A DNA stretch of 64,000 nt from Bdellovibrionales bacterium (GTDB lineage Bacteria > Bdellovibrionota > Bdellovibrionia > Bdellovibrionales > JAUICD01). A model generated the notes under the pieces. That model saw only the letters and a list, made by a program, of their open reading frames with translations, was not told the origin of the DNA and did no database searches. The DNA is taken from the NCBI GenBank assembly GCA_965262715.1, contig OZ253553.1:2656001-2720000 (forward strand). The letters are read 5' to 3'. Position numbers and translations under genes: made by a program. How positions within the stretch are numbered: the stretch's first letter is position 1; every line of letters begins with the position of its first letter. Positions 25,590-60,406 of this stretch are shown here, piece by piece.

Positions 25590-25854
25590 CACTAAAATGC
25601 ATCTGACCTCTTGAGGCGAGCCTCTCGAGGCGAGCCTCTGGTCACTTTCTGGCAGTAAACCCGACGGCTCTTACGGTCGTCGGCAAACAGCTTACTGCCT
25701 AGAAAGTCTAATGCATTTTAGTAGGGAGGATCTCCTTATTTCTTAACACAATGTTAGGGAAATTTTATCCTTGCCATCAGGTCATTGTCTAGAAAACCTG
25801 TTCATTTTTAGGAAGGAGATATCTTTCGTCTTTTTACACCATGTTAAGGGAAAT
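25590..25854 (-). repeat. Dispersed structured repeat: one full unit plus one partial unit
   Basis: Outer stem ACTAAAATGCAT/ATGCATTTTAGT; inner stem CTTTCT-A-GGCAGTAAGC/GTTTACTGCC-AGAAAG; the partial unit overlaps the thiQ stop codon. Confidence 0.85.
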
Positions 25855-26503
25855 TTTTTATTTCTTTATTATCCACTACTTGACCTTCTGAGAGTGTAAT
25901 AATTTGATTGGCAACTTGATCAATGTCCTTTTTATTATGTGTTACCATAATGACAGGAATATCAAAATCCATTGCTACTTTTTTGATCAAAGATCTAGCT
26001 GCATCATGCCTTTTCTCATCTAAAGAACTAAATGGCTCATCTAATAATAGGACTTTGGGCTGGCTCATGAGGGCATTTGCTATAGCTAACCTTTGCCTCT
26101 CTCCACCAGATAAATGTAAGGCTCTTTGCTTTAATAAATGAGTCATATCTAAGGTATTTTCTAGATGATTAAAAATATTTTTTAGCTGTTCTTTTGACTT
26201 ATGGCGAGGTTTTCCTGCAAATCTCATGTTCTCCTCTACAGTCATGTGAGGAAATATGTCGCTATCTTGAAAAACAAAACCCAATTGCCTCTTCTCAGAA
26301 GGTAGTATCGCTAAATCCTCTCCTCTAAAATTCCAAAAAAAAGAAGGACACTTTTGAAGACCTAGCAAAACTCTTAGAAAAGTGGTCTTACCACTACCAC
26401 TTGGGCCTACAATGGCGGTAATACCTTTGTCAGATAAGGATAGCTTAGATATATCTAATTTAAAATGACCAAAGTCTACGAAAATATTTTTAATTAACGA
26501 CAT
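25844..26503 (-). CDS. thiQ: ABC transporter ATP-binding subunit (thiamine-type)
   Basis: GPSGSGKTT, LSGGERQR and LLLDEPF motifs; operonic with thiP/thiB-like genes. Confidence 0.75.
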   Translation of the reverse strand: MSLIKNIFVDFGHFKLDISKLSLSDKGITAIVGPSGSGKTTFLRVLLGLQKCPSFFWNFRGEDLAILPSEKRQLGFVFQDSDIFPHMTVEENMRFAGKPRHKSKEQLKNIFNHLENTLDMTHLLKQRALHLSGGERQRLAIANALMSQPKVLLLDEPFSSLDEKRHDAARSLIKKVAMDFDIPVIMVTHNKKDIDQVANQIITLSEGQVVDNKEIKNFP

Positions 26504-27965
26504 AAGAACTTCTTTTTACTTTATTTACAATAAAAAAACAAAACCACATCAAAAATCCAGATAATAACATAAATAAAAGAACCCAAGCAGCTCCTGTAAA
26601 CCTATAACTGGATATCATACTATTAAGTAATAATCCCAATGTTGAACTACTATCTTTAAAAATCATTAAGGATAATGCAAAGTCGCCAGCAGCCCAAAAG
26701 GCAGCAAGCCCAGCTAAATGAAAGGCTAAAGATTTTGATTGAGGCCAGGTGACATGTAAAAAAATAGACCAAGATCCATGCCCCATTAATCTTGCAAGTT
26801 GTCTTTGCGAAGCTAATCTAAAAATTTCTCCTGACCATTTCCAACGATATAGTCCTCCTAAGAACAAAAGCGATAACCCTAATGAAGTCAAAAAAGAGGC
26901 TTGTACTAATGATCTTAGTTCCCATTGCCAGTAATAAGATAAGAACAAAAGTGAGAACCCCATTACAGCTGTACTTGGCATCATAAAAAGCAAATAAAAT
27001 TTATCTAAAAATGCACTAGGGCCTACAAAAGCGATAAGGCTTAGAAAAAATAAAATCACACACCCAGTTAAAAAGCTGATAAAAAGAGTTCCTCCAAATG
27101 ATTTTAATAACAATAAAGGGTTAGATAAAATGACAATAAAAGAAGACCATCCAGCAATAAGATCTACAAAACATGAAGAAAGTAATACGAACGTGATGAT
27201 AACAGGTAAACAGATAAGCCATTTAGAGCCTATATTTTGGTAATCCCATGTTGGTTTTTTCTCTTTGATACAAGGAATAAAATAAATAAAGAAAAGAAGA
27301 ATAAATATTTGATAAAAAGAAAGAAGCGCTGCTGAAGTTAGATTACCTTCAAAGCGAATCAATTCATAAATAGCCATCTCTGTTGTTACCCATTTGCCCC
27401 CACCTAAAAGTAAAGGAATAGAAAAAGAACCCAGACAAAAACAAAATAGAGTTAAAAAAATTGTAAATAGATCTCTTTTAATATTTGGGAGTAACACATG
27501 AAAAATAATATCTTTTTGAGAATGTCCAAAAATTCTTGCAAGAATTATTTGGGATCCACAGCTTTCTTTAAAGGTACGAGCAAGCATGATGGATACAAGG
27601 CCTGAATATATCACTACATGAGCTATTACAATACCAGATAGTCCATAAGGAAAATCAAAAGGGAGTAAAGAAAAAACTGTTAAAATAGAAAAAATCACAA
27701 ATAAAGATGGAAAAAAGCTTGGAAGTAAAATAAATATTTCTAAAAAGGGTTTATTCTTATACTTTATTAACCCTAAAGCTCCAAAAATACCAATAAAAAG
27801 ACAAGTCAAAGCACTCCAAAATGCTTGAACAAAGTTCCTATAAAAAACTATTAACGGAAAATGAGGTAGAGTTAAACTTTCAAAGTGATTGATGCTACCA
27901 AAAAACACAATGAGATATGGTAATAATAAAATCAATACTAAGAATATTTTAATCAATACTTTCAT
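26490..27965 (-). CDS. thiP: ABC transporter permease with two TM modules (ThiP-like)
   Basis: Very hydrophobic; duplicated EAA-like loops; FSIPLLLGGG..TTEMAIY motif. Confidence 0.75.
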   Translation of the reverse strand: MKVLIKIFLVLILLLPYLIVFFGSINHFESLTLPHFPLIVFYRNFVQAFWSALTCLFIGIFGALGLIKYKNKPFLEIFILLPSFFPSLFVIFSILTVFSLLPFDFPYGLSGIVIAHVVIYSGLVSIMLARTFKESCGSQIILARIFGHSQKDIIFHVLLPNIKRDLFTIFLTLFCFCLGSFSIPLLLGGGKWVTTEMAIYELIRFEGNLTSAALLSFYQIFILLFFIYFIPCIKEKKPTWDYQNIGSKWLICLPVIITFVLLSSCFVDLIAGWSSFIVILSNPLLLLKSFGGTLFISFLTGCVILFFLSLIAFVGPSAFLDKFYLLFMMPSTAVMGFSLLFLSYYWQWELRSLVQASFLTSLGLSLLFLGGLYRWKWSGEIFRLASQRQLARLMGHGSWSIFLHVTWPQSKSLAFHLAGLAAFWAAGDFALSLMIFKDSSSTLGLLLNSMISSYRFTGAAWVLLFMLLSGFLMWFCFFIVNKVKRSSYVVN

Positions 27966-27981
27966 TATGATAGAAAATTCC

Positions 27982-29269: not shown

Positions 29270-30949
29270 ATGTTCAAGGCATTATTGTTGTTTTTATTTG
29301 TATTTGGAGCTTCAACTTCCAAGGTTCACGGGATATCTAAAAAAGAAGATAGAGAATGTGCTATTGCACTTGTAAAGGCTGGAGAAATTGAGCCTTCTAG
29401 TAGGCAAGAACATTCTCCTAGTAATGATGAACTGAATGGAGATAATGCGAGTACTTTTAGATATTTCTGGCATAAAAATTCTACTAATATTTCTGTTTTG
29501 AAAACCTTTGCAGATAAAATACATATTATGAAAAGTCATGATGATGCCCTTCATATATATGCAAATCAATTGTTAATAACCGCTATTTTCTCATTTATGT
29601 TAAAAATGAAAGAACTCATAGAGGCAGGTACTATAGATATTGATATATTACCTGATTATATTAAAGAGACTATCTCTTCACTTGATGAATTTTCTCCTGT
29701 TGAAATGTTTATACGTGCTCATGTTATAAATAAAACTGCTGAGCAATTAGAAATCTCTGGTAAAATTGATTTTAAGTATCATGAACTTCGAAGTATGAAT
29801 GGAATAGAAGAAATAGCATTTCAGAATGAAAATAGTTATTTTAAAGAAGATGAAAAAAGCATGAGAGGTAAAAGATATAGTAGGTTTTATATTGCCGGTC
29901 TTGATCATGTTAGTGAAAGTCTAAACTTAGCTCAATCCCTATATTCAAGAGCTATAAGTTCAAGATCTATGAACCCTTACACTACACATATTCCAGAATT
30001 TGCAGCGTTGATTGATTCACATATAGCTTTTATTGAAGTGAGTATTGGGACTCAAAGGTCTTCTAGTAAGGCAGATAGACTAAGATTATTAAGTTTGTTG
30101 AAAGAAGAAGCAAACAAGCGTCGATATTTGAAAATCGTTACTTACTTCTGGTGGTTTAATTTTAATTTACGTCTTGCTATTCTTGTCACTCCTTCAGAGG
30201 AAAGAGATAGAGGTCATATCTTTTTTTCTGAGAGCATTGGAAGATTAATAGCTAATGATCAGCTAGAAGCTTTATATCTTGAAGCTATGTATAAATATTC
30301 CAGCCATGTAGAATCTGATAAGAATGATAGTTTATATACTCTACCTGAATTAATGGAATCTATTTGTAAAATATTTGATGAGTTTCCAAAAAGAATTCTA
30401 ATCCCTACAATAAGCAAATTGGGAATTATTTCTCTTAGCAAGACTGATGGAACTAAAGTGCAATTGATTCGCTTAAGAGATAAACCTATTAATGTTAATG
30501 GTATACTTATGTATCCTGATGAGCTTTTTATTGATGATATAAAGTTCGATAGTTCAAATAAGGAAACTGGCAGCACCGTACATGTTTTTGATTCTTATTT
30601 TAAGAAAAAATTAGGAACACTTAAGAAACCTGATAGACAGGCAGCTGAATATATTTATTTTAAGCTGACTCGTGAACATTTTAACTTTGTAACCATAATA
30701 AACCTCAAAGATACCATAGAAGAGGGTGACGATGAATATATCAATCTCTTAAGCTTTATTCCAAGTCGTTTAAACCGGACGCCTAATGATGTTAGGGAAT
30801 TTATAAATAGAGGTGAAAGAGTTATTATTAGACTGGTTTCAGAAATAGTCGAAGAACTTGATATAATTGACAAGTCTTCCCTGTCCGGCTTATCTGAAGA
30901 ACAAGTAACAAGGTTATACTATCTAATGATAGATTATTTTCTTAAATAG
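29270..30949 (+). CDS. Secreted hypothetical protein, paralog family member 1
   Basis: Signal peptide; shares GLDH, HIPEFA.LID.HI.FIE, VTY.WWFNFNLRL and FP.RI.IPTI blocks with the ORFs at 31283 and 34457. Confidence 0.8.
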   Translation: MFKALLLFLFVFGASTSKVHGISKKEDRECAIALVKAGEIEPSSRQEHSPSNDELNGDNASTFRYFWHKNSTNISVLKTFADKIHIMKSHDDALHIYANQLLITAIFSFMLKMKELIEAGTIDIDILPDYIKETISSLDEFSPVEMFIRAHVINKTAEQLEISGKIDFKYHELRSMNGIEEIAFQNENSYFKEDEKSMRGKRYSRFYIAGLDHVSESLNLAQSLYSRAISSRSMNPYTTHIPEFAALIDSHIAFIEVSIGTQRSSSKADRLRLLSLLKEEANKRRYLKIVTYFWWFNFNLRLAILVTPSEERDRGHIFFSESIGRLIANDQLEALYLEAMYKYSSHVESDKNDSLYTLPELMESICKIFDEFPKRILIPTISKLGIISLSKTDGTKVQLIRLRDKPINVNGILMYPDELFIDDIKFDSSNKETGSTVHVFDSYFKKKLGTLKKPDRQAAEYIYFKLTREHFNFVTIINLKDTIEEGDDEYINLLSFIPSRLNRTPNDVREFINRGERVIIRLVSEIVEELDIIDKSSLSGLSEEQVTRLYYLMIDYFLK

Positions 30950-31044
30950 AAATGGCCTTGTTGCACAAATCTCATCTTAAATCTTTATGCAACATATATG
31001 GATATGGATCCGTCTGTTAAGCAAGCAAAAAATGTAACATGTTA

Positions 31045-31200
31045 TAAGATAATGAAGATATCCTCTCTACTAAAATGCATCAGGCTTTCTAGGCAGTCAG
31101 CATTTTCTTGAAGGGGAGGTAGTAAATAGAAACTTTACTTAACATTGTGTTAAACAATGAGAGGAATCTTCTTCCTAAAAATAGACAGGTTCTTTAGGGA
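31045..31200 (+). repeat. Two partial units of the dispersed structured repeat
   Basis: TAACATGTTATAAG...CTACTAAAATGCATCAGGCTTTCTAGGCAGTCAGC and CTTAACATTGTGTTAAACAATGAG...CTAAAAAT. Confidence 0.75.
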
Positions 31201-31282
31201 AACAATTTATTAGGATTTTCCTTGACTAATATCAGAAACTATTATATAAAGTATTTCCTTTAAAGTAATAGAAAGACATTAA

Positions 31283-32365
31283 ATGTTGAAGGTATTAGCA
31301 GGGATTATTTTTTTATTAGTAGGATCGCATTTAGAAGCTCAAGGAGTTACACCTCCTAATGAAAATGGTATAAATTCAACAGATCCATCTTGTATCCTTG
31401 CTCTTCAATGAAATAAATACTTTGCTGAGACTGAAGATCAACTGGAGGGATATGATAAATCCTACATTGCTGGTCTTGATCACGCCATGGAAAACTTGAG
31501 ATTAGTTCAATCTTTAAGAGAGAGGCTGCGTAATGATAAATCTATTGATGCTCATACTTTACATATTCCAGAATTTGCAGATTTAATTGATACACATATA
31601 ACTTTTATTGAGGACGGTATTAAATCTCAAAGATATGGTGACGAATCTGACAGGTTAGAGTTATTAGAAAGGCTTAAATCTGAAGGACAACAACAAAAAA
31701 CTTCAAGGACAGTGACTTATCGTTGGTGGTTTAATTTTAATTTACGTCTTTCTTTTTTTGCCACTCCTTATTCTATAGAATTTATAACAAATGATGAGTT
31801 AGAAGATATTTATAAAAACCCAGTATATTTCTCTCCTTATAAAGTCGAGATGATTGAAAAAATAAGATTTTTGTTGGATAAATTTCCAGAAAGGATCATG
31901 ATTCCTACAATACATAATTTGGGCATTATGTCTATAAATAAAGTCTATGGAACAGGAATACATCTTATTGGGTTAAGGAATAGACCTACTATAAATATGG
32001 ATAGAATAAAAGATGCATCTCCTGGCTTGTTTTTTTGGCATGATATATTTCATATATTAAAGGAGGATGTTAATGATTCACCAGAATTTCTTTCTCGGTT
32101 TCAGCAAAAGTTAGTAGGTCTTCCAAGATATCAAAGGAAGTTAGTTGAGAGTATTTACCTTCAATTGACTTATGAATTAAGGCTCTCTCTTAAGGAAGGC
32201 GAAGAAACATTTATTATAAAAGGCAGGCGATTTCCAATAATAAGGCCACCATCAAACTTTTTATTGAGGTTGGTTTTATTGGTAAAGGATGCCTATGGAC
32301 TTGAACAATTCTGGAGGCTCATTTCAGAGGTCAGTCAAGAACTTGCGTTATCTGATAACAAATAA
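31283..32365 (+). pseudogene. Secreted paralog family member 2 with an in-frame TGA
   Basis: MLKVLAGIIFLLVGSHLEAQ...CILALQ*NKYF...IAGLDHAMENL; TGA at 31409 is in frame with ORF 31487-32365. Confidence 0.75.
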
Positions 32366-32610: not shown

Positions 32611-32658
32611 AAAATAATGGTTTATTGATAACATATTAAATAAAGAGGTTAAGCTAAA

Positions 32659-33894
32659 ATGTCTAAGGATGACTTTCATTTTTTAAACAGTCAGGTCTGG
32701 TTAAAGTACACTCAAGAAAGATATTTGCCTCTGGATGAGATCAAATATCGTTTGGAAGGTCTTGGTATTCAAAAAGATAGTTGGCATGAAATCAGACAGC
32801 AAGTTCTAAGCTTTAGAAAAGTGGGAGCTGTTATTTTTAATTTGGATAGTATAGGTAAAACATTTTGGTATTATCCTGCGGATTGTATTTACAAGAAACT
32901 TTATCAAATTGAAAAGCTTGGTATTTCTCTATTCTATCAAATAGAAAATTATAGTGCTTTTAAAAATGAGTTTATAAATTATTCATTAACGGAAGAATCT
33001 GTGACCTCTTCTATTTATGAGGGAGCTAATAGCACAAGGGCAAAAGCCAAGGAGCTTATTGCCATAGGTCATCGGGCAAAAAATAAAGATGAGCAGATGT
33101 TAATTAATAATTATAAAGCTATGCAATGGGTTAAAAAAAATTTCAGTCTTCCAATATCAAATAGTCTTATTTTAAGGATACATAAAATTATAACAGATAA
33201 AACTTTAGAGAAAAACTGTGGTCAATTCCGTGATGATGTTGTTTATGTAGGAAAACATGAAGGGGTATTATATAGTAAAATAACAAAAACTTTAGAAGAG
33301 ATCACTTATTTAATAACGAATCATCCAAGATTTCTAAATGGTTTAGATAAATTAATGCAGAGCATATTTTTTCATTATTTTATTGCTTATGTTCATCCAT
33401 TTTTTGACGGTAATGGCAGGACTGCAAGAACTTTGTTTTACTTAAGTGCAATGAAAAACAATCTTAAATTTGTGGAGTTGCTTTCTATTTCTGCAAATTT
33501 AAAGCATGGTTCGAAATATGAACGGTCCTTTGACTTAGTAAAGAAATATGAATTTGATTTAACATATTTCATTGATTTTTGTTTGGATTCATTGATTTTC
33601 GCACTTAATCATACACATCAGCGTGTAAATTATCTTAAAAATATTTCAAGGCTTATTGATATTATAAGAGTTAACAATCATCAAATATTTTTATTACAAA
33701 AAATGACTTTAAACAAATACAAACCGATCACTATTGAGGAATATGCAGAAAGTATAAATAAGTCAAGAGAGCTTGCCAGAAAGGATTTGAAAGATTTAGT
33801 AAAAAAGAAATTGTTAAGTGAATGTAAAAAAGGCAAAAAGTATGTTTATTATATTGAAAACAAAGTATTAAGTCAGAAGCTAAAAATGCTCTAA
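32659..33894 (+). CDS. Fic-family protein with C-terminal HTH
   Basis: HPFFDGNGRTAR motif; SSIYEGA helix. Confidence 0.92.
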   Translation: MSKDDFHFLNSQVWLKYTQERYLPLDEIKYRLEGLGIQKDSWHEIRQQVLSFRKVGAVIFNLDSIGKTFWYYPADCIYKKLYQIEKLGISLFYQIENYSAFKNEFINYSLTEESVTSSIYEGANSTRAKAKELIAIGHRAKNKDEQMLINNYKAMQWVKKNFSLPISNSLILRIHKIITDKTLEKNCGQFRDDVVYVGKHEGVLYSKITKTLEEITYLITNHPRFLNGLDKLMQSIFFHYFIAYVHPFFDGNGRTARTLFYLSAMKNNLKFVELLSISANLKHGSKYERSFDLVKKYEFDLTYFIDFCLDSLIFALNHTHQRVNYLKNISRLIDIIRVNNHQIFLLQKMTLNKYKPITIEEYAESINKSRELARKDLKDLVKKKLLSECKKGKKYVYYIENKVLSQKLKML

Positions 33895-34240
33895 GATTTC
33901 TTATTAATCATCCATGTAAAAGTTATATAATCTCAATATCTATAGGATTTGAGTTGGTAACTTCATCAAATATTTTTTATTCATTAACTTGTATTCCAAT
34001 GCTAAGAGCAATTTATGCGAGTAGGCACTTCTCACAGGTGAGCCAAGAACTTGCCTTATCTGATAATAAATAAGCTTTTTTAAAAAATAAAAAAGTAAGC
34101 TGATTACATTTTTTGTAATCTTTTATTTTCATGCATGTAAAATTTACATAGTCTCAATATTTTATTGTATTTAATTATTCATACTGAACAGTAATTGTTT
34201 TAAGTGAATAATATCTGTCTATTCAGCGCACTGAAATATA

Positions 34241-34389
34241 CGATTTCCTTAACATGATGTTAAACAATGAGGGGAGTCTCCTTAGTAAAATGCCTCATAC
34301 TTTCTAGGCATTGCCTTATTTGCCAAACGACGTGAGCCAGTTTGGAGGCAATGCCAGAAAGTCGCCAGAGGCGAGATGCATTTTAGTGA
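34241..34389 (+). repeat. Dispersed structured repeat, full unit
   Basis: CGATTTCCTTAACATGATGTTAA...CTTTCT-A-GGCATTGCC/GGCAATGCC-AGAAAG; apical stem CCAAAC/GTTTGG; ends GCATTTTAGTG. Confidence 0.85.
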
Positions 34390-34456
34390 ATTAGTCATTG
34401 ACTTATATTTAAAATTATCATATATAAATATCTTCATGAATAATATGGGAAACATT

Positions 34457-35860
34457 ATGTCTAGAGGTTATTTATTATTATTTTGTGCTTTTATATCCAA
34501 GACTGCAATTGTACATGGAGCATCTGATAACCTTGCAATACCGGAAATGACTGAACTCTCGAAGAGCGATTTAGAAGGAATGACAGCGGCAGGTTTATTT
34601 TGTGTTGATGCTCTTATGAATACAAAGAAAGTTAGATCAAATGAGTACTCAAATGAAACAGAGCAGAGCTTAAAAGATCGGGGGTACAATGAGAGGCTTA
34701 TTGAAGGGCTTGATCACGTGAATGCAAATTTAAGACTGGCTCAGTCTTTAAGAGATAGGTGGCGTGATGAATCCATTGACCTCAATACTTTACATATACC
34801 GGCATTTGCTGATCAAATTGATCTACATGTAAAGTTTATTGAAGGAATTATTAGATCTCAAAGCTCTAATGATAAAGTTGAGAGGTTAGAGTTATTAGAA
34901 GAACTTAAAGCTGAGGCACAGCATCGTAAAAGTTCAGAGAGTGTGACTTATCGATATTTCTTTAGTCTTAACTTACGTCTTTCTATTCTTGCAACTCCTG
35001 CAGGGGAAAGATATAAGAAGGCGGCTTATGAGCCTAGGTTTGATAATTCCGAACATTTTCAAAAATGGATGAGAGATACTAGTGGATTTCGAAAATGGAT
35101 AATCGATGATAGTGAATTAGAATCTGATTATGCGATAATTCAAGGAATAAATAATAGATATGTAGATTTTAATAGTCAAGATCAGGGTGAAGTTCTTGAT
35201 GCTATTCGTAAAGGAGTTGCACGTTTAACACCTTATGAACGTAGTAAAGTTGAAAGATTTTTATATTTGATAAACGTAATGTTTGACGACACTGAGTATG
35301 AGGCTTTTAAATTTGTAAATTTATTACATGATTTTCCAAGAAGGATTATGATACCGACAATATATGATTTAGGTATTATGTCTATAAATAGGACTTATGG
35401 AACAGGTGTGCATCTTATTGGCTTAAGTAAGAAATCATATGGAAGTTACTTTAGTGGAGATTTCAATTATGTATTTTTTCTTAGGAATATAAATGAGAGT
35501 ATAATGATGGATATAGATAATTCACAGATGGTTACACATTTTCAAAGTATGTTAGCAGGTCTTACACCACTCCAAAGGGAAAATGTTGAGATCGCTTATT
35601 TTGGTGCAACCTATCTATCTGAAAGATCGTTAGAAGATTTTCCTATAGACTTTTCACTTGTTGAGTATGAGATTTTAAAAATGTATGGACATAAAGTAAA
35701 TGAGCAGATGCTTGATGAAGGCGAACGTATTTTTATTTATCTTCTTATAAGCTCATGGATAAAAGAAAGAGGTATGGTCAAAACGATTGTATTAGTAAAT
35801 GAGTATCTTGATGAACATCCAGAATTAAAGGAGGAGATTTTAGAGATATTAAATGAATAA
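34457..35860 (+). CDS. Secreted hypothetical protein, paralog family member 3
   Basis: Signal peptide MSRGYLLLFC; GLDH, HIPAFA, VTYRYFFSLNLRLS and FPRRIMIPTIYDLGIMSIN blocks. Confidence 0.8.
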   Translation: MSRGYLLLFCAFISKTAIVHGASDNLAIPEMTELSKSDLEGMTAAGLFCVDALMNTKKVRSNEYSNETEQSLKDRGYNERLIEGLDHVNANLRLAQSLRDRWRDESIDLNTLHIPAFADQIDLHVKFIEGIIRSQSSNDKVERLELLEELKAEAQHRKSSESVTYRYFFSLNLRLSILATPAGERYKKAAYEPRFDNSEHFQKWMRDTSGFRKWIIDDSELESDYAIIQGINNRYVDFNSQDQGEVLDAIRKGVARLTPYERSKVERFLYLINVMFDDTEYEAFKFVNLLHDFPRRIMIPTIYDLGIMSINRTYGTGVHLIGLSKKSYGSYFSGDFNYVFFLRNINESIMMDIDNSQMVTHFQSMLAGLTPLQRENVEIAYFGATYLSERSLEDFPIDFSLVEYEILKMYGHKVNEQMLDEGERIFIYLLISSWIKERGMVKTIVLVNEYLDEHPELKEEILEILNE

Positions 35861-36058
35861 TCCAATATCCAATAATTGATAAAGGTGAGAGGAATTAGAT
35901 AAGAGATTATTTGCTGGTCAAGTTTTTTTGGAAATGAATACTATACAATAATTTTTTCAAATGAAGTGTCGACTTTATTTATAGACATCTTGTTGAACTT
36001 ATTGACTTATAGCAGCTATCATATTTAGATGCTCTCATAAGTAATGAGGAAAAATATT

Positions 36059-36319
36059 ATGTTTAAAGCTTATTTATTATTATTTTGTGGGCTTTTAATA
36101 AGTGCAAAAGTTGTAGCGACTGAACATGAAATTAAAATGGATAACTTAAATCTTTGTGCAACAAAGCCTATAAGAGTTAAAAAAATTGAAAGATATAATC
36201 ATATTATCAAATTGCTTGAAGAGGCTGGTGCAATACATGAGGAAGAAGTTGATGCAGTACATGAAGCAACAGATACTAATACAGTATTCGGCTATTTTAG
36301 GAGCCTGTTTCGACCATAA
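36059..36319 (+). CDS. Short secreted protein, probably a truncated fourth paralog
   Basis: Signal peptide MFKAYLLLFCG and upstream region resemble those of 29270 and 34457. Confidence 0.55.
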   Translation: MFKAYLLLFCGLLISAKVVATEHEIKMDNLNLCATKPIRVKKIERYNHIIKLLEEAGAIHEEEVDAVHEATDTNTVFGYFRSLFRP

Positions 36320-36383
36320 AATTTCCTCTTAATTTTTAAAAACAAAATACTTTCAATAGATCAAAAAAGCTAATGCTGTTCAA

Positions 36384-37538
36384 ATGAATTTAAAGAATCT
36401 AGATTTTGAAACAAGAGCTATTTATGCTGACCAACTTCCAGATGAACTCACTGGAGCTGTGATTACTCCTATAACACTTTCTACCACATTTGTTCAAGAC
36501 TCTCCTGGGGAGCATAGAGGTTATGAATACTCACGTAGCGGTAATCCTACACGTATGATCTATGAAAGGCATTTAGCTAATTTAGAGTCAGGAAGCTATG
36601 GTTTTGCCTTTTCATCAGGATCTGCTGCTCTTACAACTCTACTCCATCTTTTTAAAACAGGTGATCATATTATCTCTATGAATAATATTTATAGTGGCTC
36701 AGTTTGTTTAATCAATCAATTTATAAAAAGTCAGGGGATTAAGGTTGACTTTGTAGATCTATCAGATATTCATCAATTTGAAGATGCTATTTGTGAAAAC
36801 ACAAAATGTGTTTGGGTAGAGACTCCGACAAACCCTACATTAAAGCTTATTGATATAGGAAAAATATCTCAAATAGCTAGAAAGAAAAATATCTTAGTAG
36901 CTGTTGATAACACTTTTATGAGCCCTTTTTTTCAAAGGCCACTTTTATTAGGTGCAGATGTCAGTTGTCATTCAACGACTAAATATATTGGTGGCCATAG
37001 TGATGTAGTTGGTGGTTTTATGGCTGTGAAAAATAAGGAATTGGCTGAAAAATTGTACTTTTTACAAAACTCTCTTGGAGCTATTGCATCGCCTTTTGAT
37101 AGCTTTATGTGTTTACGATCTCTTAAAACTCTAGGTATTCGAATGAAAGCGCATGCTTTCAATGCACAGAAGATAGCTCATTTTTTAGAAGATCATGCTA
37201 AGATAGAGAAAGTTATTTATCCTGGATTAAAAAGTCATCCACAACACAGTTTAGCTCAAAAACAGATGTATGGTTTTGGAGGAATGTTGAGTTTTTACCT
37301 TAAAGGAGGACTTAAAGAAGTTAGAACTTTTTTAAGAAAATTACAAATATTTAACTTAGCAGTGAGTTTAGGAGGCACAGAATCTTTGATAGCGCATCCT
37401 GCAATTATGACACATGAGTACCTCTCAGAAAAAAAGCGTCAGAACTTTGAGATCACTGATAATTTTATTCGAGTGAGCGTTGGTATTGAAAACTTCCAAG
37501 ATCTTATTAACGATTTAGATCAAGCTCTCACCTTTTAA
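36384..37538 (+). CDS. Cystathionine gamma-synthase/gamma-lyase (PLP-dependent)
   Basis: YEYSRSGNPT, ETPTNP, DNTFMSP and HSTTKYIGGHSD motifs. Confidence 0.93.
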   Translation: MNLKNLDFETRAIYADQLPDELTGAVITPITLSTTFVQDSPGEHRGYEYSRSGNPTRMIYERHLANLESGSYGFAFSSGSAALTTLLHLFKTGDHIISMNNIYSGSVCLINQFIKSQGIKVDFVDLSDIHQFEDAICENTKCVWVETPTNPTLKLIDIGKISQIARKKNILVAVDNTFMSPFFQRPLLLGADVSCHSTTKYIGGHSDVVGGFMAVKNKELAEKLYFLQNSLGAIASPFDSFMCLRSLKTLGIRMKAHAFNAQKIAHFLEDHAKIEKVIYPGLKSHPQHSLAQKQMYGFGGMLSFYLKGGLKEVRTFLRKLQIFNLAVSLGGTESLIAHPAIMTHEYLSEKKRQNFEITDNFIRVSVGIENFQDLINDLDQALTF

Positions 37539-38233: not shown

Positions 38234-38520
38234 GACCTAAAGAGGTTATAGATCTACTTATAAATCAAGAGAATGCTGACATTTTAGGAAGATACATGCT
38301 TCAAGGTACAAATTACTCAAAAGAGGAATTTATAGAGATTGAAAATGAGATTATTAGAAGTAAGGAGGACCAAGTAATGAAAAGCACTTATGATCGATTG
38401 ATTGATGAAGGAATAGAAAAGGGAATGGAAAAGGTGGCTTTGCGGATGTTAGAGCAAAATATGGAACTGAAATTTATTGCCAAAATAACAAATCTTTCAA
38501 TCCAACAACTTAAAAAATAG
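38210..38520 (+). pseudogene. 3' remnant of an Rpn-family (recombination-promoting nuclease/putative transposase) gene; retains a 47-aa C-terminal ORF at 38377-38520
   Basis: MKSTYDRLIDEGIEKGMEKVALRMLEQNMELKFIAKITNLSIQQLKK is a typical Rpn C-terminus; SD TAAGGAGG at 38361-38368. Confidence 0.7.
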
Positions 38521-46490: not shown

Positions 46491-46515
46491 GGTAGGGCTG
46501 TGAAAAAGGCAGGAA

Positions 46516-54816: not shown

Positions 54817-57708
54817 ATGATGAATATGAGATCTCTTTTCATTAAAATTTATAAGAATGGACAGCTTATAGAGGTCAAGCAGTTTCATGCAGAGCGTATT
54901 GTTCTAGGTAGTGGAGATGTAAATGTAGATATTCGTTTGGAAGGTCTTTTGCCTTCTTCTCATGCTGTTATTCAAAAAGAAAGTGATGGCCTTTATCATG
55001 TTGTTATTTTAGCAGGTGTAGAGCCTGGTATTTTTGTGTCTGGCCAACAAGTTTGGCGGTACCCTCTTGTATCTTATGGAGTTTTCCAATTAGGTTATTA
55101 TCATATAGAGTTTTGGGAGATGCTTTCTCAGAGAGTATCAGTACCTCCTCATCCTCCAGTTGTAGCACATCCTATATCAAACCCCTTTGATGAAGATCAA
55201 AAAACACAAGTTACTACTACACAAACTGTCTCTTCACCAATAGATCCACTTATACAAACTCAACAGGATTCACCATTTCATCCCTCGTATTCGGAGATAC
55301 CTACACAAAGTGGTCCTGTTCCACCACCTCAAAGCCCACAGTTTCCTTCGCATCCAGAGATACCTACACAAAGTGGTCCTGTTCCACCGCCTCAAAGCCC
55401 ACAGTTTCCTTCGCATCCAGAGATACCTACACAAAGTGGTCCTGTTCCACCGCCTCAAAGCCCACAGTTTCCTTCGCATCCAGAGATACCTACACAAAGT
55501 GGTCCTGTTCCACCACCTCAAAGCCCACAGTTTCCTTCGCATCCAGAGATACCTACACAAAGTGGTCCTGTTCCACCGCCTCAAAGCCCACAGTTTCCTT
55601 CGCATCCAGAGATACCTACACAAAGTGGTCCTGTTCCACCGCCTCAAAGCCCACAGTTTCCTTCGCATCCAGAGATACCTACACAAAGTGGTCCTGTTCC
55701 ACCGCCTCAAAGCCCACAGTTTCCTTCGTATCCAGAGATACCTACACAAAGTGGTCCTGTTCCACCGCCTCAAAGCCCACAGTTTCCTTCGTATCCAGAG
55801 ATACCTACACAAAGTGGTCCTGTTCCACCGCCTCAAAGCCCACAGTTTCCTTCGCATCCAGAGATACCTACACAAAGTGGTCCTGTTCCACCACCTCAGG
55901 TAGCAGAAGGTGAACCTTATCCGGAGGCAACCACAGAAGTGCAACAAAATCTATTACATTCAATACAATCAGATATGTTGAGGTCATCAGCTTTTACTTT
56001 GCCAACTGAAGTTCCAGTATCTGTGCTTACAAAGCCTGCTCAACAAGAAGTAAAACAAACATTTGTGCCAAAAGAAAATATTGTTCATTCTTCACCATCA
56101 CAAGTTGGAGTATTACAAATAGAGGAAGAACCTTCTGGTCGACAGGAAGGTGAGAGTTATCGTAGAAAAAGAACATTCGCAGACAATAGTCATGTCAAAG
56201 ATATTAATGAGAGAGTTCAACCAGAAAATGGCAGTGTTGTTAAAGTGATTGTAGCTTGGAATGATAAAATTCTTAATACACTTTATTTTGATTATAACTC
56301 TACTGTAAAAGTTGGTAGTCATTCTAAAAATGATATAGTATTACCTGTATTTTCTGATTCTAAAGATTCGCACTCACTTATCAAAATTAAAAATTTAGCA
56401 TCTTTATTTGTTACTTATGAGATGAAAGGTGTTTTAGTTAAAGGTTCTGAAACGATCACTTTTGATGATATGATCAATAATGGAGCAGCATCAAGGCAGG
56501 ATACAGGTTTTACAATTGATCTACAGAGAGGAGAATTAGCTCGAGTTGATTTTGATAGTGGAATTTCAATTTTTGTAAAATATACTGTACCTTCACCTAA
56601 ACCTCTGATTGGACCTTTCTTTGACTTCACCTCTGGAGAGTTAAATACTATTATTATGGCCATTGGTGGTTCTATTATTATGGCTATCTTCTTTTTAATA
56701 GCCCATGAGCCTGAAGTGGTGAAGTTAGAGGATGAGGTTGAAAGAAAGGCTATTTTCGTTTATAAGCCACCACCTCCACCGCCTCGTATTGATCCTATAC
56801 CTGTAAAACCTAAGCCTATAAAAGTGAAGCCTAGGAAAGTTAAAAAAATGGCTAAGAAGCCAAAAAAGCCAGCACAAAGGGTAAAAACAGTAACTAGGCA
56901 GAAGCAAGTAAATAACAAAAAAACAAGAGTTGCTCAACGGAGACCTAAAAAAGAAGGTAAAAGAGGAGGAGGAAGAAAGGCCAACAAATCAAAAAACCGT
57001 CAAGCAGTTGCATCGGCTAATGCAAATAAAACTAAAAACCGCAGTAGAGGTGGTGGTGTTGCAGCTGGAAGAAAGAATAAAAAAGATGTGAGTAAATCAG
57101 GATTACTAGGAGCTTTTGCAAAAGGAGGTCAACAAGATTCTTTAAGAGAAGCTTTTGATGGAGCAGGTGTCGTAGAAAACCTAGCTCAACGAGCAAAAGG
57201 TCGTGGTGGCGGTAGAGGCGGCGGTATTGGAGGAGAGCTTGCAGCTATAGGTAAAGGTGGAAGAGGAGAAAGCACTTACGGTGTTGGCGGTATTAAAACA
57301 AAAGGTCGCGGAGGTGGTGGCGGTGTTAAAGGTGCTGGACAAGGATCTTTAGGCGGCAAACTAAATGTGCGAGTTGATGTTTCTGGAGGTGCTGGAGAAT
57401 CTTTTGAAGGTGTTATTGATAAGGAAGCTGTTCGAAGAGTTGTGAAAAGAAATGTTAAACAGTTGAGGACTTGTTATGAAAGACTTGCTCAAAAGGATCC
57501 GAATGCTTCTGGACGAGTAGATTTAAATTGGACAATTGGGAAGCATGGTCGTGTAGGAAGTGTTAAAGTGGTTAAATCGCAAATTAAAGATCGAAGTACA
57601 TTGGATTGTATGAAGTTACGTTTAGCAGCGTGGAGATTTCCAGACCCTCCAGAAGGAGTCATTGGAGATATAAACTACCCATTTGTATTTGTAATATCTA
57701 GGCAATAA
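54817..57708 (+). CDS. gltG: GltG/PglI-like protein (FHA-like N-terminus, TM, AgmX/PglI TonB-like C-terminus)
   Basis: TM near residue 620; Pro/Lys and Gly-rich linker; IDKEAVRRVV...LRTCYE...WRFPDP...YPFVF. Confidence 0.75.
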   Translation: MMNMRSLFIKIYKNGQLIEVKQFHAERIVLGSGDVNVDIRLEGLLPSSHAVIQKESDGLYHVVILAGVEPGIFVSGQQVWRYPLVSYGVFQLGYYHIEFWEMLSQRVSVPPHPPVVAHPISNPFDEDQKTQVTTTQTVSSPIDPLIQTQQDSPFHPSYSEIPTQSGPVPPPQSPQFPSHPEIPTQSGPVPPPQSPQFPSHPEIPTQSGPVPPPQSPQFPSHPEIPTQSGPVPPPQSPQFPSHPEIPTQSGPVPPPQSPQFPSHPEIPTQSGPVPPPQSPQFPSHPEIPTQSGPVPPPQSPQFPSYPEIPTQSGPVPPPQSPQFPSYPEIPTQSGPVPPPQSPQFPSHPEIPTQSGPVPPPQVAEGEPYPEATTEVQQNLLHSIQSDMLRSSAFTLPTEVPVSVLTKPAQQEVKQTFVPKENIVHSSPSQVGVLQIEEEPSGRQEGESYRRKRTFADNSHVKDINERVQPENGSVVKVIVAWNDKILNTLYFDYNSTVKVGSHSKNDIVLPVFSDSKDSHSLIKIKNLASLFVTYEMKGVLVKGSETITFDDMINNGAASRQDTGFTIDLQRGELARVDFDSGISIFVKYTVPSPKPLIGPFFDFTSGELNTIIMAIGGSIIMAIFFLIAHEPEVVKLEDEVERKAIFVYKPPPPPPRIDPIPVKPKPIKVKPRKVKKMAKKPKKPAQRVKTVTRQKQVNNKKTRVAQRRPKKEGKRGGGRKANKSKNRQAVASANANKTKNRSRGGGVAAGRKNKKDVSKSGLLGAFAKGGQQDSLREAFDGAGVVENLAQRAKGRGGGRGGGIGGELAAIGKGGRGESTYGVGGIKTKGRGGGGGVKGAGQGSLGGKLNVRVDVSGGAGESFEGVIDKEAVRRVVKRNVKQLRTCYERLAQKDPNASGRVDLNWTIGKHGRVGSVKVVKSQIKDRSTLDCMKLRLAAWRFPDPPEGVIGDINYPFVFVISRQ
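55294..55899 (+). repeat. 63-bp intragenic tandem repeat, 9 full copies plus 1 partial
   Basis: Encodes EIPTQSGPVPPPQSPQFPS(H/Y)P. Confidence 0.98.
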
Positions 57709-57752
57709 GGAATAAATAATTTTTAAGATTAAAAACTTAAAAGGAGTTCATA

Positions 57753-58430: not shown

Positions 58431-58432
58431 TT

Positions 58433-58918: not shown

Positions 58919-59514
58919 TGGCTATATATGCACCGGGTAAGAGAAGTAGAAATAATCGCATGGATAAAACAACTCGTAAGATTGTGGCACAGCTTTCTTT
59001 AACGGCAATGGTGGATATGTTCACTGTTTTAGTGGTGTTTTTATTAATGAATTACAGGACCACAGAGACTGTTCTTTATATACCCAAAGAGGTTGAATTG
59101 CCAACAGCTTCTGAAACTAAGGAACTTAAGCCGGCTCATGTTGTGACAGTTTCTCCAAAAGAAATATTAATAGATAAGGAGAGGGTAGCTTCATTTAGAG
59201 AGGTTAGGGACCAAAGGGATTGGATGGTCATTAATTTGAGAAACAGGTTAGTTGAAATGTTTCGTCGAGATGAGTTAGAATATAACTCAAGAATAGCTGT
59301 ACAATTAAAAGAGGCTACTTTAGTGGATCCTAGGGATGCTGAAAGAGAAAAGGCAGCTTTACGTAAAATCACTATTCAAGCAGATAAGGATATTGATTTT
59401 TTAACTATCAAGAAAATCATGTACACAGTCACAGAGGCAGGTGCTCAAGAGATTAACTTTGCAGTGATTATAGTACCTAAGCCAGAAGATGCTGCTGCTC
59501 CTCCTTCCAGTTGA
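58918..59514 (+). CDS. aglS: ExbD/TolR subunit (AglS-like)
   Basis: LSLTAMVDMFTVLVVFLL and IQADKDIDF motifs. Confidence 0.72.
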   Translation: MAIYAPGKRSRNNRMDKTTRKIVAQLSLTAMVDMFTVLVVFLLMNYRTTETVLYIPKEVELPTASETKELKPAHVVTVSPKEILIDKERVASFREVRDQRDWMVINLRNRLVEMFRRDELEYNSRIAVQLKEATLVDPRDAEREKAALRKITIQADKDIDFLTIKKIMYTVTEAGAQEINFAVIIVPKPEDAAAPPSS

Positions 59515-59769
59515 TCTTCATTCATAATGAAGTCTCTGAATTCATATCTATAAATTTATTTTGATATTTATGATTAAAAGTTTGTAGTCATCGGACAATT
59601 ACTCTGTGGAAAAACTCGCTTTTTTTGACATAAAGATCAAAACATCATTGAAAATATCCTAAAGAAAGTTATATATTGAAAATAGACTAGGCTTAACTAC
59701 TTTAAAGTCAAAACTTCAATGTTTAGTATACAATTTGATGTATCAAAGAAGATAAAATCATGTTAAGGT

Positions 59770-60348
59770 TTGAATATGAGCTATAAATGGATACTTTTAA
59801 GTTTTATTTGTGGATCATTGACTTGGACTTTTGCATCTAGAGCTGCCATAGATTCTCGTAATACTTCACTTTCTAATCAGATGAGTGTTGAGTGCAGAGA
59901 TTTAAAGAGATCATTTTTAAGAGTGAGTGTTCATGGTTCTAATTTACGTCATTTTCGTGTGACAAAGACACCATCTGGTCAACCTTATCAACATTTAAGT
60001 TTGAGATGTCGTCGTGGAAATTGTGTAATTGTTAAAGAGTCTAAGTTTGTAAACCGCTATTTACCGGATCACCCTAGTGCAGATGAGGATGGTTTTGTCA
60101 CTTATCCAGACATAAATCCTAAAAGAGAGCAAGCGGCTCTTAGAGCTGCCGTCACTGAACTTTCTGTTTTAGCTAGACAGAAGATTTGTGGTTCATCTTT
60201 ACATGAAGCTTCTGATGGCTTGCTTGTTAGATACAGCTTAAGTCGCAAAGTAGAAAGCGATGTATTTAACTTCAACCAACAAGACCGAATCATCTCTTGG
60301 GTTCGTAATTTTAAAGATGGTAGAAGCACTATTCTAAACTTCAATTAG
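59770..60348 (+). CDS. Secreted FlgC-like protein
   Basis: Signal peptide; SNL...TKTPSGQPY and YLPDHPSADEDGFVTYPDIN resemble flagellar rod FlgC. Confidence 0.6.
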   Translation: MNMSYKWILLSFICGSLTWTFASRAAIDSRNTSLSNQMSVECRDLKRSFLRVSVHGSNLRHFRVTKTPSGQPYQHLSLRCRRGNCVIVKESKFVNRYLPDHPSADEDGFVTYPDINPKREQAALRAAVTELSVLARQKICGSSLHEASDGLLVRYSLSRKVESDVFNFNQQDRIISWVRNFKDGRSTILNFN

Positions 60349-60406
60349 ATTAAGAAATTTCCATAACATGATGTTAAATAATGAGAACATCCTTGTTTTG
60401 TTTTAT

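Follow-up and report, generated by a model that had tools for sequence, protein, structure and literature searches.

A three-armed, REP/BOX-like intergenic repeat in an uncultured Bdellovibrionales bacterium, probably selfish and read through its folded top strand

What is a short, foldable sequence that recurs between unrelated genes, and how did it come to be there so often? Within the window, the 64-kb stretch of DNA analysed here, a sequence-only reading had reported about 11 full or partial copies of such a unit, and a covariance model (cmsearch) and nhmmer, which agree with each other, find five full and six partial units in the same places (Table 1). The element reaches about 8-14 nt farther 5′ and about 5 nt farther 3′ than the core given there. 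The stems that had been quoted can be read directly: an outer stem formed by ACTAAAATGC and GCATTTTAGT, inner stems that carry a bulged A, apical stems capped by GAGA and GTGA loops, and a hairpin of GCCAGAGGC. In our reading, this unit of about 155 nt, which folds into three arms and sits between genes of an uncultured Bdellovibrionales bacterium (genome G000), represents an undescribed family of REP/BOX-like selfish repeats that is likely read via its folded top strand.

Table 1. Repeat units in the window and elements of the reference copy
Feature	Position	Strand	Called by / details
Full unit	25586-25770	-	cmsearch 134.9 bits; nhmmer model 3-156
Partial unit: 5′ module, P1 5′ strand, P2 start	25778-25860	-	covariance model; nhmmer model 6-83
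Partial unit, 3′-truncated	31035-31117	+	nhmmer model 15-97
Partial unit: 5′ module, P1/P2 start	31126-31203	+	cmsearch 49.7 bits; nhmmer
Full unit, reference copy	34236-34392	+	cmsearch 145.1 bits; folded as DNA and RNA
12-nt motif TTTCCTTAACAT	34244-34255	+	invariant alignment columns; left half of imperfect palindrome to 34263
P1 5′ strand	34284-34296	+	pairs with 34375-34387; helices 3-4, 93.7-97.5% paired
P2 hairpin: P2a, bulged A at 34306, P2b, internal loop, apical stem and loop	34299-34362	+	
P3, GCC-AGA-GGC-type small hairpin	34363-34373	+	helices 8-9
P1 3′ strand GATGCATTTTAGT	34375-34387	+	folds and pairing test
Partial unit without P2 3′ base, P3 and P1 3′ strand	37522-37635	+	nhmmer model 14-117
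Full unit	37645-37799	+	cmsearch 142.8 bits
Partial unit	37934-38055	+	covariance model; nhmmer; repeat family D4
Full unit, second copy of 411-nt duplication	38056-38210	+	cmsearch 148.1 bits
Full unit between HAD-hydrolase gene and next gene	46511-46679	+	cmsearch
Solo 5′ module	60350-60415	+	cmsearch 30.9 bits; repeat family D3

The family is abundant and dispersed, well in excess of what chance would give. Across the 2.94 Mb of G000, a first nhmmer pass with an HMM of four copies (E<1e-3) returned 454 matches spanning 60,458 bases (2.06% of the genome), and after one iteration there were 461, 303 of them full length, which together make up about 2% of the DNA. They lie on both strands (249 plus, 212 minus) and, by crude ORF calls of at least 100 aa, 428 of the 461 overlap ORFs by less than 10%, while 17 lie mostly within them. 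Units adjoin unrelated genes, occupy convergent (53 of 356), divergent (49 of 367) and tandem (117 of 1202) intergenic regions, and form 249 clusters on both strands of the chromosome, of which 159 are single units. Where inverted unit pairs enclose a gene, that gene has a housekeeping or defence function. Beyond G000, the family was seen just in a congeneric MAG, G001 (a single 2.57-Mb contig, in which the model matches at least 150 times and BLAST gives about 490 candidates), and in three contigs of a probable sister strain; two close relatives, G002 and G003, contain zero copies. The family multiplied separately in G000 and in G001. The nearest neighbour of a copy lies within its own genome for 143 of 143 copies from G001 and 37 of 41 from G000, and the median best within-genome identity amounts to 0.958 and 0.894, respectively, against a between-genome maximum of 0.817.

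The fold of the unit is a three-way junction composed of an outer stem, P1, a long arm, P2, in which a bulged A is conserved, and a small hairpin, P3. Relative to shuffles, one unit has a folding z-score of -6.35 as DNA and -5.07 as RNA. Among 60 diverse copies (48 pairs, 2862 cells), 92.7% of the cells are paired, compared with 34.7-49.1% when partners are slid, and 33 of the 48 pairs are altered on both sides, which bears out the earlier claim that a nested structure is kept by compensatory changes. Cells changed on both sides number 456, against a mean of 146 in shuffled controls, none of which reached that value (0 of 500). In helix 5, within P2, both-side changes occur in 12 of 16 pairs, and pairing reaches 96.9%. 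G000 alone contains 32 distinct perfectly paired haplotypes of P2b, 18 of P3 and 14 of P2c, and the bulged A persists even when the adjacent pair goes from T-A to G-C. Nearest-neighbour copies display 172 double WC-to-WC changes alongside 389 pair-breaking single changes; by our own rough arithmetic, independent mutation would be expected to yield about a dozen such doubles.

The 5′ part of the unit behaves differently. Its motif TTTCCYTAACAT, 12 nt long, is nearly invariant, and the 'TTAACATnnTGTTAA' part, which had been listed in the shared architecture, turns out to be a conserved sequence motif and not a co-varying helix: covariation is absent from the helix of the 5′ motif and its palindrome (helix 1) in the 60 copies. 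Conservation within the unit is highest in the left half of the palindrome; the right half decays, with one arm pair broken and uncompensated in 24 of the 60 copies. Between nearest neighbours in G000, the motif differs at 3.3% of its sites, the stems at 7.4%, other unpaired positions at 11.0% and the remaining 5′ module at 17.7%.

Which strand, and which kind of nucleic acid, carries the fold? The fold is specific to one strand: GNNA loops appear solely in the top strand. Tetraloops cap 192 of 238 single apical hairpins, and of these 115 are GNRA, 144 GNNA and none UNCG; TNNC, the complement of GNNA, is essentially absent among the loops listed. G-U pairs are in weak excess over A-C overall (323 to 215, about 1.5 to 1), and the relation is reversed in P3 (27 to 55). 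We infer that the intermediate, RNA or single-stranded DNA, is more probably the latter.

Sites with and without a unit can be compared directly. Paralogous sequences of both kinds exist (families C, D and E), the orthologous HAD-gene junction that is filled in G000 by 46511-46679 is empty in G001, and unit sites differ between G000 and contigs that are about 90% identical to it. The junctions vary, in that three are clean without duplication, one (family G) carries a duplication of about 24 bp of flank, and several represent replacement instead of simple insertion. The unit has no terminal inverted repeats. Testing 5-mers at all offsets over 194 copies with distinct flanks revealed no target-site duplication (at most 6 matches, against no more than 4.6 in shuffled controls); this test is blind to a 2-bp duplication, and the three clean filled/empty pairs show none.

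Many arrays simply repeat the unit in tandem together with flanking DNA, for example as 257-nt units. Between rpsQ and rplN, within the ribosomal-protein operon, lie three or four co-oriented copies, and 53 nt of the rpsQ 3′ end are repeated with each. At this orthologous site, the 5′ module and P1 are near-identical between G000 and a sister contig, while about six matched double changes separate the two in P2b, P2c and P3. In the window, the partial unit 25778-25860 lies head-to-tail against 25586-25770, whose P3 is longer because an 11-14-nt sub-repeat of the GCCTCGAGAGGC type is present in additional copies. A composite dimer is formed by 37522-37635 and 37645-37799, the latter with perfect 10-nt palindrome arms (TTCCTTAACA-N3-TGTTAAGGAA), and 37934-38055 belongs to a 411-nt tandem duplicate of 37548-37832 (95% identical). 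An array of the TCCGGCAA octamer directly follows the solo module on its 3′ side. Hairpin-only copies (model 45-152) exist as well, P3 of some copies gains one to three additional 11-14-nt units, and one such unit (place 34366) is an indel between sequencing runs. Every copy breaks short-read assemblies.

What might move such a unit? As had been stated before, the window contains no cognate transposase for it. A RAYT route, which the earlier reading proposed to check, fails in the congener G001, where copies run into the hundreds but a Y1 gene is missing; Y1 (PF01797) has one match in G000 and none in G001, and the sole G000 locus (L037, ±1.5 kb) contains no unit. G001 has no match to Y1_Tnp, RVT_1, Transposase_20 (IS110) or rve and only three DDE_Tnp_1 genes, compared with 53 DDE_Tnp_1 matches in G000, and IS4-like genes are the sole DDE family common to both genomes. 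In G000, seven multi-copy IS gene groups from six IS families have ends unlike those of the unit, TTTCCYTAACAT and TTTTAGTGAAAC, and no IS family was found at a fixed distance from units. YhgA-like genes, present 19 times in G000 and 16 times in G001, are just as frequent (16) in the copy-free G003. An RNA associated with CRISPR-Cas12a was discarded; the Cas12a carried by both unit-rich genomes comes with a canonical 36-nt repeat array of its own, and its locus (2,580,000-2,606,000) contains no unit. The recent burst in G001 took place in a complete genome that showed no Y1/RAYT, reverse transcriptase, IS110-type or rve gene and just three IS4-like genes, with ends that do not match. The mover might conceivably be an enzyme outside the classes known to act on structured repeats, or a co-opted host factor, with the invariant TTTCCYTAACAT and the bulged three-way junction of one strand as its signal for recognition and cleavage in a mobilisation system of a new, structure-reading kind, a proposal that we regard as rather doubtful.

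How might a fold be preserved while its sequence drifts? We envision that a putative enzyme recognises the folded top strand together with the invariant 12-nt motif, and that only copies retaining both would be copied again, which would explain why lineages differ by compensatory pairs and why single copies decay after insertion. The intermediate would be single-stranded, with DNA favoured over RNA. Whole helices may be swapped between copies through gene conversion, and stable hairpins may trigger local tandem duplications that grow into arrays. On balance, then, this abundant intergenic family of about 155 nt, whose fold is kept by matched changes, is probably non-autonomous selfish DNA. With about 460 copies, the family is far more than a small set of RNA genes. 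A selfish REP/BOX-type nature is indicated because the units are almost all intergenic, occur in both orientations and in all spacer types, and show filled and empty sites and lineage-specific bursts. Among the classes proposed earlier (REP, MITE or structured RNA), REP- or BOX-type behaviour, with about 460 copies, agrees with these results, whereas a MITE in the strict sense does not, since terminal inverted repeats and target-site duplications are both absent. Counting against this reading are the failure to find a mobilising enzyme, the lack of uniformity among insertion junctions, and the absence of a replication-strand bias: ssDNA transposition of the IS200/IS605 type should leave one, yet the 249 clusters of G000 are balanced (130 leading, 119 lagging).

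Could the fold be selected in a transcript instead? The units might be functional structured RNAs (cis leaders, stabilisers or small RNAs), multiplied for use by the host. GNRA enrichment (115 of 192 apical tetraloops) would fit an RNA-level role too, as would the orientation of units within 100 nt of a gene start, which point toward the gene in 35 cases and away in 6; the strand-specific fold, the overall excess of G-U pairs and the co-oriented rpsQ-rplN copies point the same way, and pneumococcal BOX elements are described as transcribed and able to affect neighbouring genes in the cited sections (PMC3049150). In tandem-gene spacers, however, 63 regions are co-oriented and 43 opposed (p = 0.06), copies occupy every spacer type beside unrelated genes, and orthologous sites are gained, lost or swapped among close relatives. 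The G-U excess is small and reversed in P3, the 25 GUUA loops match GNNA but not GNRA, conservation peaks in an unpaired-looking DNA motif rather than in a helix, and promoter-like or terminator-like signals are not above chance. A comparison of the window with Rfam gives 0 matches at gathering score, in line with the earlier failure to recognise a known family, and for one unit just chance-level miRNA models (E 0.39 and 7.9). We consider an RNA function unlikely. An explanation to which we assign similarly little probability dispenses with a dedicated enzyme: host processes alone, namely replication slippage at stable hairpins, unequal crossing-over and gene conversion, would spread the unit and keep the family uniform, and hairpin-templated repair would keep its arms complementary. 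Arrays of unit plus flank (257-nt units, 53 nt of rpsQ, about 24 bp), the whole helices swapped at rpsQ-rplN and the lack of a transposase candidate speak for it. It leaves unexplained, however, how the unit comes to occupy unrelated new single-copy sites (159 of the 249 clusters comprise one unit; paralogous insertions), the near-invariant 12-nt motif outside the hairpin and the preference for GNNA loops, and such repair would remove the conserved bulged A and the unpaired junction.

The conserved motif invites yet another reading, a host-domesticated DNA site in which a dimeric protein binds the 23-bp palindrome TTCCTTAACA-N3-TGTTAAGGAA and the hairpin is a passenger. The exceptional conservation of the left half, the perfect 10-nt arms of some copies and the solo 5′ modules are consistent with this, but the free decay of the right half (24 of 60 copies) makes for a poor fit to a symmetric operator, the hairpin itself is strongly constrained, and G002 and G003 do without the site; we deem it quite improbable. 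Barely probable is mobilisation in trans, with the unit as a classical MITE and the DDE transposase of a resident IS as its mover. IS4-like genes of G000 and G001 could be such a source, and, like the MITEs of the cited sections (PMC3049150), the unit combines small size with AT-richness and extensive base pairing. This reading is nevertheless already largely refuted by the lack of terminal inverted repeats, of a 5-nt duplication in the 194 copies, of IS ends resembling those of the unit, and of any IS family at a fixed distance from it.

Small structured repeats occupy a few percent of many bacterial genomes, and for most such families (BOX, ERIC, RPE and others) we know of no copying agent. 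Our family offers a clean test case by virtue of its great abundance, its separate amplification in two sister genomes, its sharp invariant motif and its strand-specific three-way junction, and the list of candidate enzymes is short because one host, G001, is almost without transposases. The enzyme, if found, would reveal how such repeats spread and could yield a new structure-guided DNA-handling protein. The family also drives fast turnover of intergenic DNA and can lead covariation-based searches for new RNA genes astray.

To judge from the cited sections, the closest parallels are REP/REPIN sequences mobilised by RAYT (Bertels and Rainey, 2011, PMC3116915), which likewise form hundreds of short intergenic hairpin repeats per genome (in ssDNA or mRNA), lack terminal inverted repeats and target-site duplications, occur in clusters, tandem arrays and lineage-specific populations, and keep their structure while their sequence drifts. 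A REPIN, as described there, consists of two inverted REPs of 20-30 nt, whereas the present unit is a single asymmetric element of about 155 nt that combines a three-way junction with an invariant 5′ motif set apart from it. The REP-RAYT system moreover expects a cognate Y1 gene, usually repeat-flanked, in each active genome, and G001, with the most recent burst, has none. The BOX repeats of Streptococcus pneumoniae (Croucher et al., 2011, PMC3049150), regarded as parasites that can nonetheless influence gene expression, are, in the sections cited, similarly modular composites with pairing end modules and an internal sub-repeat of variable number, have no known transposase and are confined to a narrow clade; the corresponding sub-repeat here is the GCCTCGAGAGGC-type unit that lengthens P3. 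The likeness rests on build and not on sequence, homology to boxA/boxB/boxC is unlikely given the different host phylum, and the three-way junction, bulged A, GNNA apical loop and 12-nt motif are particular to our family. With bacterial MITEs (Correia/NEMIS, RUP, Nezha), as portrayed in the same sections, it shares being small, AT-rich, base-paired, non-autonomous and abundant (PMC3049150), but the terminal inverted repeats, target-site duplications and parent IS with matching ends of those elements were not found for it.

IS200/IS605 ends and their derivatives are recognised as folded ssDNA by Y1 TnpA, and the unit would work in a comparable manner, with a subterminal structure of one strand read by an enzyme and no terminal inverted repeats or target-site duplications, as far as the cited sections describe that system (PMC6006769). 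The left-end and right-end hairpins are dissimilar, which sets the two apart, and derivation from such an element (a PATE) was rejected given the missing Y1 gene in G001 and the balanced replication strands. Integron attC sites, about 60-140 nt long, also conserve a folded strand with extrahelical bases rather than a sequence, and chromosomal arrays can exceed 100 copies, in one orientation and in one cassette array next to intI; the 249 clusters, scattered over both strands of the chromosome, speak against such an array. Rickettsia palindromic elements are structured selfish repeats of about 100-150 nt, for which we know of no mobilase. They are known for in-frame insertion into genes, unlike our family with its 17 of 461 matches mostly inside called ORFs, and both sit in a reduced, low-GC and probably host-associated genome.

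The consensus unit is about 155 nt long. A short, A/T-rich leader at its 5' end is followed by the 12-nt motif TTTCCYTAACAT, the left arm of an imperfect palindrome (in its fullest form TTCCTTAACA-N3-TGTTAAGGAA), and a weak small hairpin (GGAG...CTCC) lies between this palindrome and a three-way junction. The junction comprises the outer stem P1 (ACTAAAAATG.../...CATTTTTAGT), the long hairpin P2, made up of P2a, a bulged A, P2b, an internal loop and an apical stem-loop, and the small hairpin P3 of GCC-AGA-GGC type, which is longer in some copies by extra 11-14-nt GCCTCGAGAGGC-type units; the 3' end reads ...TAGTGAAACAG. A subfamily carries an extra insertion between P2 and P3, at model position ~117-120. 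Positions of units and neighbouring features are collected in the table.

Units and neighbouring features (window coordinates unless prefixed by G000, the genome under study)
Feature	Position	Remark
Full unit, reference copy	34236-34392 (+)	
Unit at HAD-gene junction	46511-46679	
Subfamily with 87-88-nt insertion	G000:C1:57482-57717, 66301-66852, 87973-88208, 1975581-1976149, 2255495-2255730	
Tandem units of 257 nt	G000 558.5-562.3 kb	
411-nt duplication including a unit		in the window; repeat family D4
Octamer array	60407-60494	perfect TCCGGCAA, ~10 repeats, directly after a solo 5' module
63-nt (21-codon) repeats	55155-56021	~14 tandem copies, up to 98% identical
ORF containing the 63-nt repeats	54817-57708	963 aa, no Pfam match
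Three paralogous genes	29270-30949, 31487-32365, 34376-35860	no Pfam match; units between them
Join in a contig of run X6	33859 to 36382	via only ~570 nt
Apparent gene debris	38047-38520, 38805-39170	beside a unit cluster
IS30-like insertion	G000:C1:399668	at the centre of a unit palindrome; TTAACAT, then IS30-like right end
Resemblance to G000 IS5-like right end	30953-30975	GGCCTTGTTGCACAAA, just before the partial unit at 31035
Type V-A CRISPR-Cas12a locus	G000:C1:2589828-2605954	intact, outside the window; ~40 repeats of GTCTAAGAAGACTTATTAATTTCTACTATTGTAGAT

A sequence-only reading had listed eleven units in the window, all of which are present (five full, six partial), and its claim that their structure is conserved by compensatory changes is borne out. 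For alignment A1, 189 distinct full copies were thinned to less than 88% mutual identity, giving 61 representatives; a variant of 190 nt and a truncated copy of 139 nt were removed and the reference unit was added, which left 60 copies, 28 from G000, 28 from G001 (a metagenome-assembled genome of the same genus) and four from contigs of a third genome, G004. In the RNAalifold fold of A1, to which two 5' helices were added by hand, 92.7% of the 2862 cells pair, as against 34.7-49.1% with partners slid by 1-3 columns; this structure came from the same sequences and is favoured over its slid versions, but the margin is nonetheless very large. Both sides change in 33 of the 48 pairs, and cells with changes on both sides number 456 against a shuffle mean of 146, a count that none of 500 shuffles reached. 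The number of further standard pair types is not distinctive in A1 (103 of 500 shuffles equal it), and the palindrome shows no covariation in this alignment: the left arm does not vary, and the right arm accumulates changes that are not compensated, one pair being broken in 24 of the 60 copies.

A separate count over 251 distinct full G000 copies found 98.3% of cells paired in P2a, 97.2% in P2b, 92.6% in P3, 88.3% in P2c and 86.7% in P1. Some single pairs occur as all four Watson-Crick types, and G000 alone holds 32 distinct perfectly paired helices for the 10-bp P2b, 18 for P3, 14 for P2c, 10 for P1 and six for P2a, which requires many separate compensatory events rather than one inherited change. 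Between nearest-neighbour copies, differences amount to 3.3% in the motif, 7.4% in stems, 11.0% in other unpaired positions and 17.7% in the rest of the 5' module in G000 (0.95%, 3.2%, 4.8% and 13.5%, respectively, in G001). The G000 stem differences comprise 172 Watson-Crick-to-Watson-Crick doubles and 45 other doubles, along with 211 singles that keep a G-U-type pair and 389 that break or repair a pair. Copies thus decay, yet matched doubles far exceed the expectation under independent mutation, which rough arithmetic places at about a dozen. These data support the reading that the structure of the unit is under selection.

Which strand folds, and does it do so as RNA or as DNA? Against shuffles, the fold scores z = -6.35 as DNA, -5.07 as top-strand RNA and -5.23 as bottom-strand RNA. 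G-U outnumber A-C combinations in the G000 stems (323 vs 215 overall; reversed in P3, 27 vs 55), a weak top-strand signal. Apical loops could be folded for 249 of the 251 distinct G000 copies, the apical part being too short in two, and 238 formed single hairpins, 192 of them with tetraloops (115 GNRA, 144 GNNA, no UNCG). Among the loops listed, those of the complementary TNNC type are all but missing, and this strong asymmetry implies that the folded strand is the one written as plus. Twenty-five loops are GUUA, which matches GNNA and not GNRA; Nakano et al. reportedly described d(cGNNAg) in 2002 as a very stable DNA tetraloop motif. GNRA is described as the classic RNA tetraloop class (PMC4371310), and d(GNA) loops as very stable in DNA (PMC3201870). 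With GUUA falling into GNNA and stable DNA loops being known, the loops favour neither RNA nor single-stranded DNA. The proposal of a candidate new structured RNA survives as regards a structure under selection, and the unit may act as RNA or as single-stranded DNA.

The genome-wide search that the sequence-only reading had suggested was carried out as an HMM census of G000, a single-contig genome of 2.94 Mb and 33.6% G+C in which the window spans C1:2656001-2720000. A model built from four window units gave 454 matches, which together span 60,458 bases (2.06% of the genome), and one iteration raised this to 461, of which 303 are full length (249 matches on the plus and 212 on the minus strand). 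Scored against crude, greedy ORF calls of at least 100 aa, 428 of the 461 fall essentially between genes, and 17 are for the most part contained in an ORF. The matches form 249 same-strand clusters, 159 being single units and the largest an array of 16, with no replication-strand bias (130 leading vs 119 lagging clusters). Intergenic regions of every type hold units (53 of the 356 convergent, 49 of the 367 divergent and 117 of the 1202 tandem ones), and the genes next to units are mutually unrelated (an ABC transporter, Fic proteins, a PLP enzyme, a HAD hydrolase, ribosomal proteins, ParAB, NifU, SufE). With gene starts crudely defined by a Shine-Dalgarno-like motif and an ORF of at least 80 aa, a co-oriented start lies within 100 nt of the unit 3' end in 35 of 257 clusters and a divergent start within 100 nt of the 5' end in six of 257, a clear orientation bias near gene starts. 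Gene ends show no comparable bias (50 vs 64); tandem-gene spacers hold co-oriented units only in 63 regions, opposed units only in 43 and both in 11 (p = 0.06). Promoter and terminator content of the units does not exceed that of shuffles.

Among 41 related genomes, BLAST found the unit in three: G000, G001 and G004. Within a five-genome family, a covariance model returned at least 150 copies each in G000 and G001, 12 in G004 and none in the relatives G002 and G003. A scan for TTCCTTAACATNNTGTTAA over 28 of 64 parts of the genomes of 185,579 species listed matches mainly from G001; loci of unrelated taxa among the 19-mer matches listed carry no unit and were dismissed as chance matches. G001 and G000 share only ~70% nucleotide identity in coding DNA. 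The unit-bearing G004 contigs (C1, C4 and C11; loci L213-L218) share 83-95% identity with G000 over kilobases, and G004 is placed in another genus, whose other member, G003, is free of units. The simplest reading is that these contigs probably belong to a sister strain of G000, having been mis-binned into G004. A search of metagenome contigs for close relatives that might reveal insertion polymorphisms yielded only proteins of 51-52% identity.

Several comparisons bear on mobility. In paralogous families C, D and E, comparison of filled with empty sites shows a unit that interrupts otherwise continuous sequence and has no duplication beside it; in family G, ~24 bp of flank are duplicated, including the Shine-Dalgarno site and start codon, and in family F only a diverged 5' module remains. 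A filled/empty pair in 'family B' was discarded as a replacement within a larger composite repeat. The HAD-gene junction is occupied in G000 and empty in G001. Between the sister contigs and G000, one site holds a unit in the sister only, another holds the full hairpin module in G000 and only a 23-nt loop inside P1 in the sister, and a third is wholly replaced, a comparison that shows fast turnover at unit sites. Contigs of four public runs over 20 kb break at units, and none bridges one; no RNA run is listed for the region. All 143 G001 copies and 37 of 41 G000 copies have their nearest neighbour within their own genome, with a median best identity of 0.958 (G001) and 0.894 (G000) within and a maximum of 0.817 between genomes, so that multiplication, or homogenisation, of the family has taken place independently in each lineage.

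Whole helices appear to be exchanged between copies. At the rpsQ-rplN site, where the sister contig has three units and G000 four, the final 53 nt of rpsQ recur ahead of every unit. The 5' module and P1 hardly vary between corresponding units, which differ in P2b, P2c and P3 by about six matched double changes, the flanking genes being ~91% identical. These matched changes are too many for point mutation in place, and we therefore infer gene conversion from other family members, whose break points would fall within conserved blocks of the unit. Arrays are plain tandem copies of the unit plus its flank.

What copies the family is a potentially valuable question. The gene content of G001 was searched family by family. 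The RAYT route raised earlier fails there, G001 being rich in units yet encoding no Y1_Tnp (one in G000); the family is not RAYT-driven in this congener. A reverse transcriptase fares no better (RVT_1, three in G000 and none in G001), Transposase_20 (IS110) is missing from both, rve falls from 25 to none and DDE_Tnp_1 from 53 to three. YhgA-like Transposase_31 counts 19 in G000, 16 in G001, 16 in unit-free G003 and one in G004. RAYT/Y1, reverse transcriptase, IS110, rve, IS4-like and YhgA-like enzymes were thus rejected as mobilase because they are absent from G001, have non-matching ends or are equally numerous in G003. G000 is rich in IS30-, IS4-, IS5-, IS256- and IS3-like elements, whose ends show no resemblance to unit ends, and no IS family of this genome lies at a fixed distance from units, the exception being a 1082-aa multi-copy gene of a larger repeated island. 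As for an autonomous parent, a search for units whose 5' and 3' halves are separated by a gene returned only the 88-nt insertion variant and unrelated genes, and the genes between inverted pairs of unit ends are ordinary ones. A link to Cas12a was likewise abandoned: the TNB-domain match common to G000 and G001 belongs to a canonical type V-A locus, which carries 36-nt repeats of its own. A Cas12a-sized ORF occurs in G001 as well.

Copies of IS elements in G000 number 24 (IS30-like), 21+9+3 (IS4-like), 14 (IS5-like), 11 (IS256-like) and ~10 (IS3), besides 19 YhgA-like genes. The IS30-like insertion in a palindrome accounts for some 'solo' 5' modules, and the IS5-type end also adjoins a unit in a sister contig. 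Looser CCGG-rich arrays of ~8 nt (GCCGGATT, CCCGGAAA and similar) flank several other G000 units and occur in the sister contig; together with the octamer, they may represent a second repeat type travelling with units. The three paralogous genes correspond to repeat families D2 and D6 of the window (65-78% identical), and the X6 join implies that some relative is without the third paralogue and its unit. Within the gene debris, one ORF groups with YhgA-like (Transposase_31) genes, and a 121-aa ORF, which lies a long way from the intact locus, has a Cas12a REC1 domain and no other. G000 also encodes ankyrin-repeat, TPR and Fic proteins, and only 77% of its DNA lies in ORFs of at least 100 aa; its heavy load of mobile and host-interaction genes suggests a host-associated lifestyle.

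How does the family relate to known repeats? Rfam holds nothing like the unit, and a narrow search of open-access literature on Bdellovibrionota repeats and MITEs found no description of it, which is not proof that none exists. The suggestion of a REP or MITE family holds on its REP side. The family is not a MITE: TIR, TSD and a parent IS were looked for and not found, a 5-nt target-site duplication being absent at any offset in 194 copies. REP/REPIN elements are the closest kind in how the unit would work, but it has neither their cognate RAYT nor their doublet build. In build and state of knowledge, the pneumococcal BOX element comes closest; it is described as composite, with pairing end modules, an internal sub-repeat in varying number and without a known transposase, and its authors judged it parasitic but transcribed (PMC3049150). 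We read the units as an undescribed REP/BOX-like family, and the interpretation drawn from sequence alone is supported in part.
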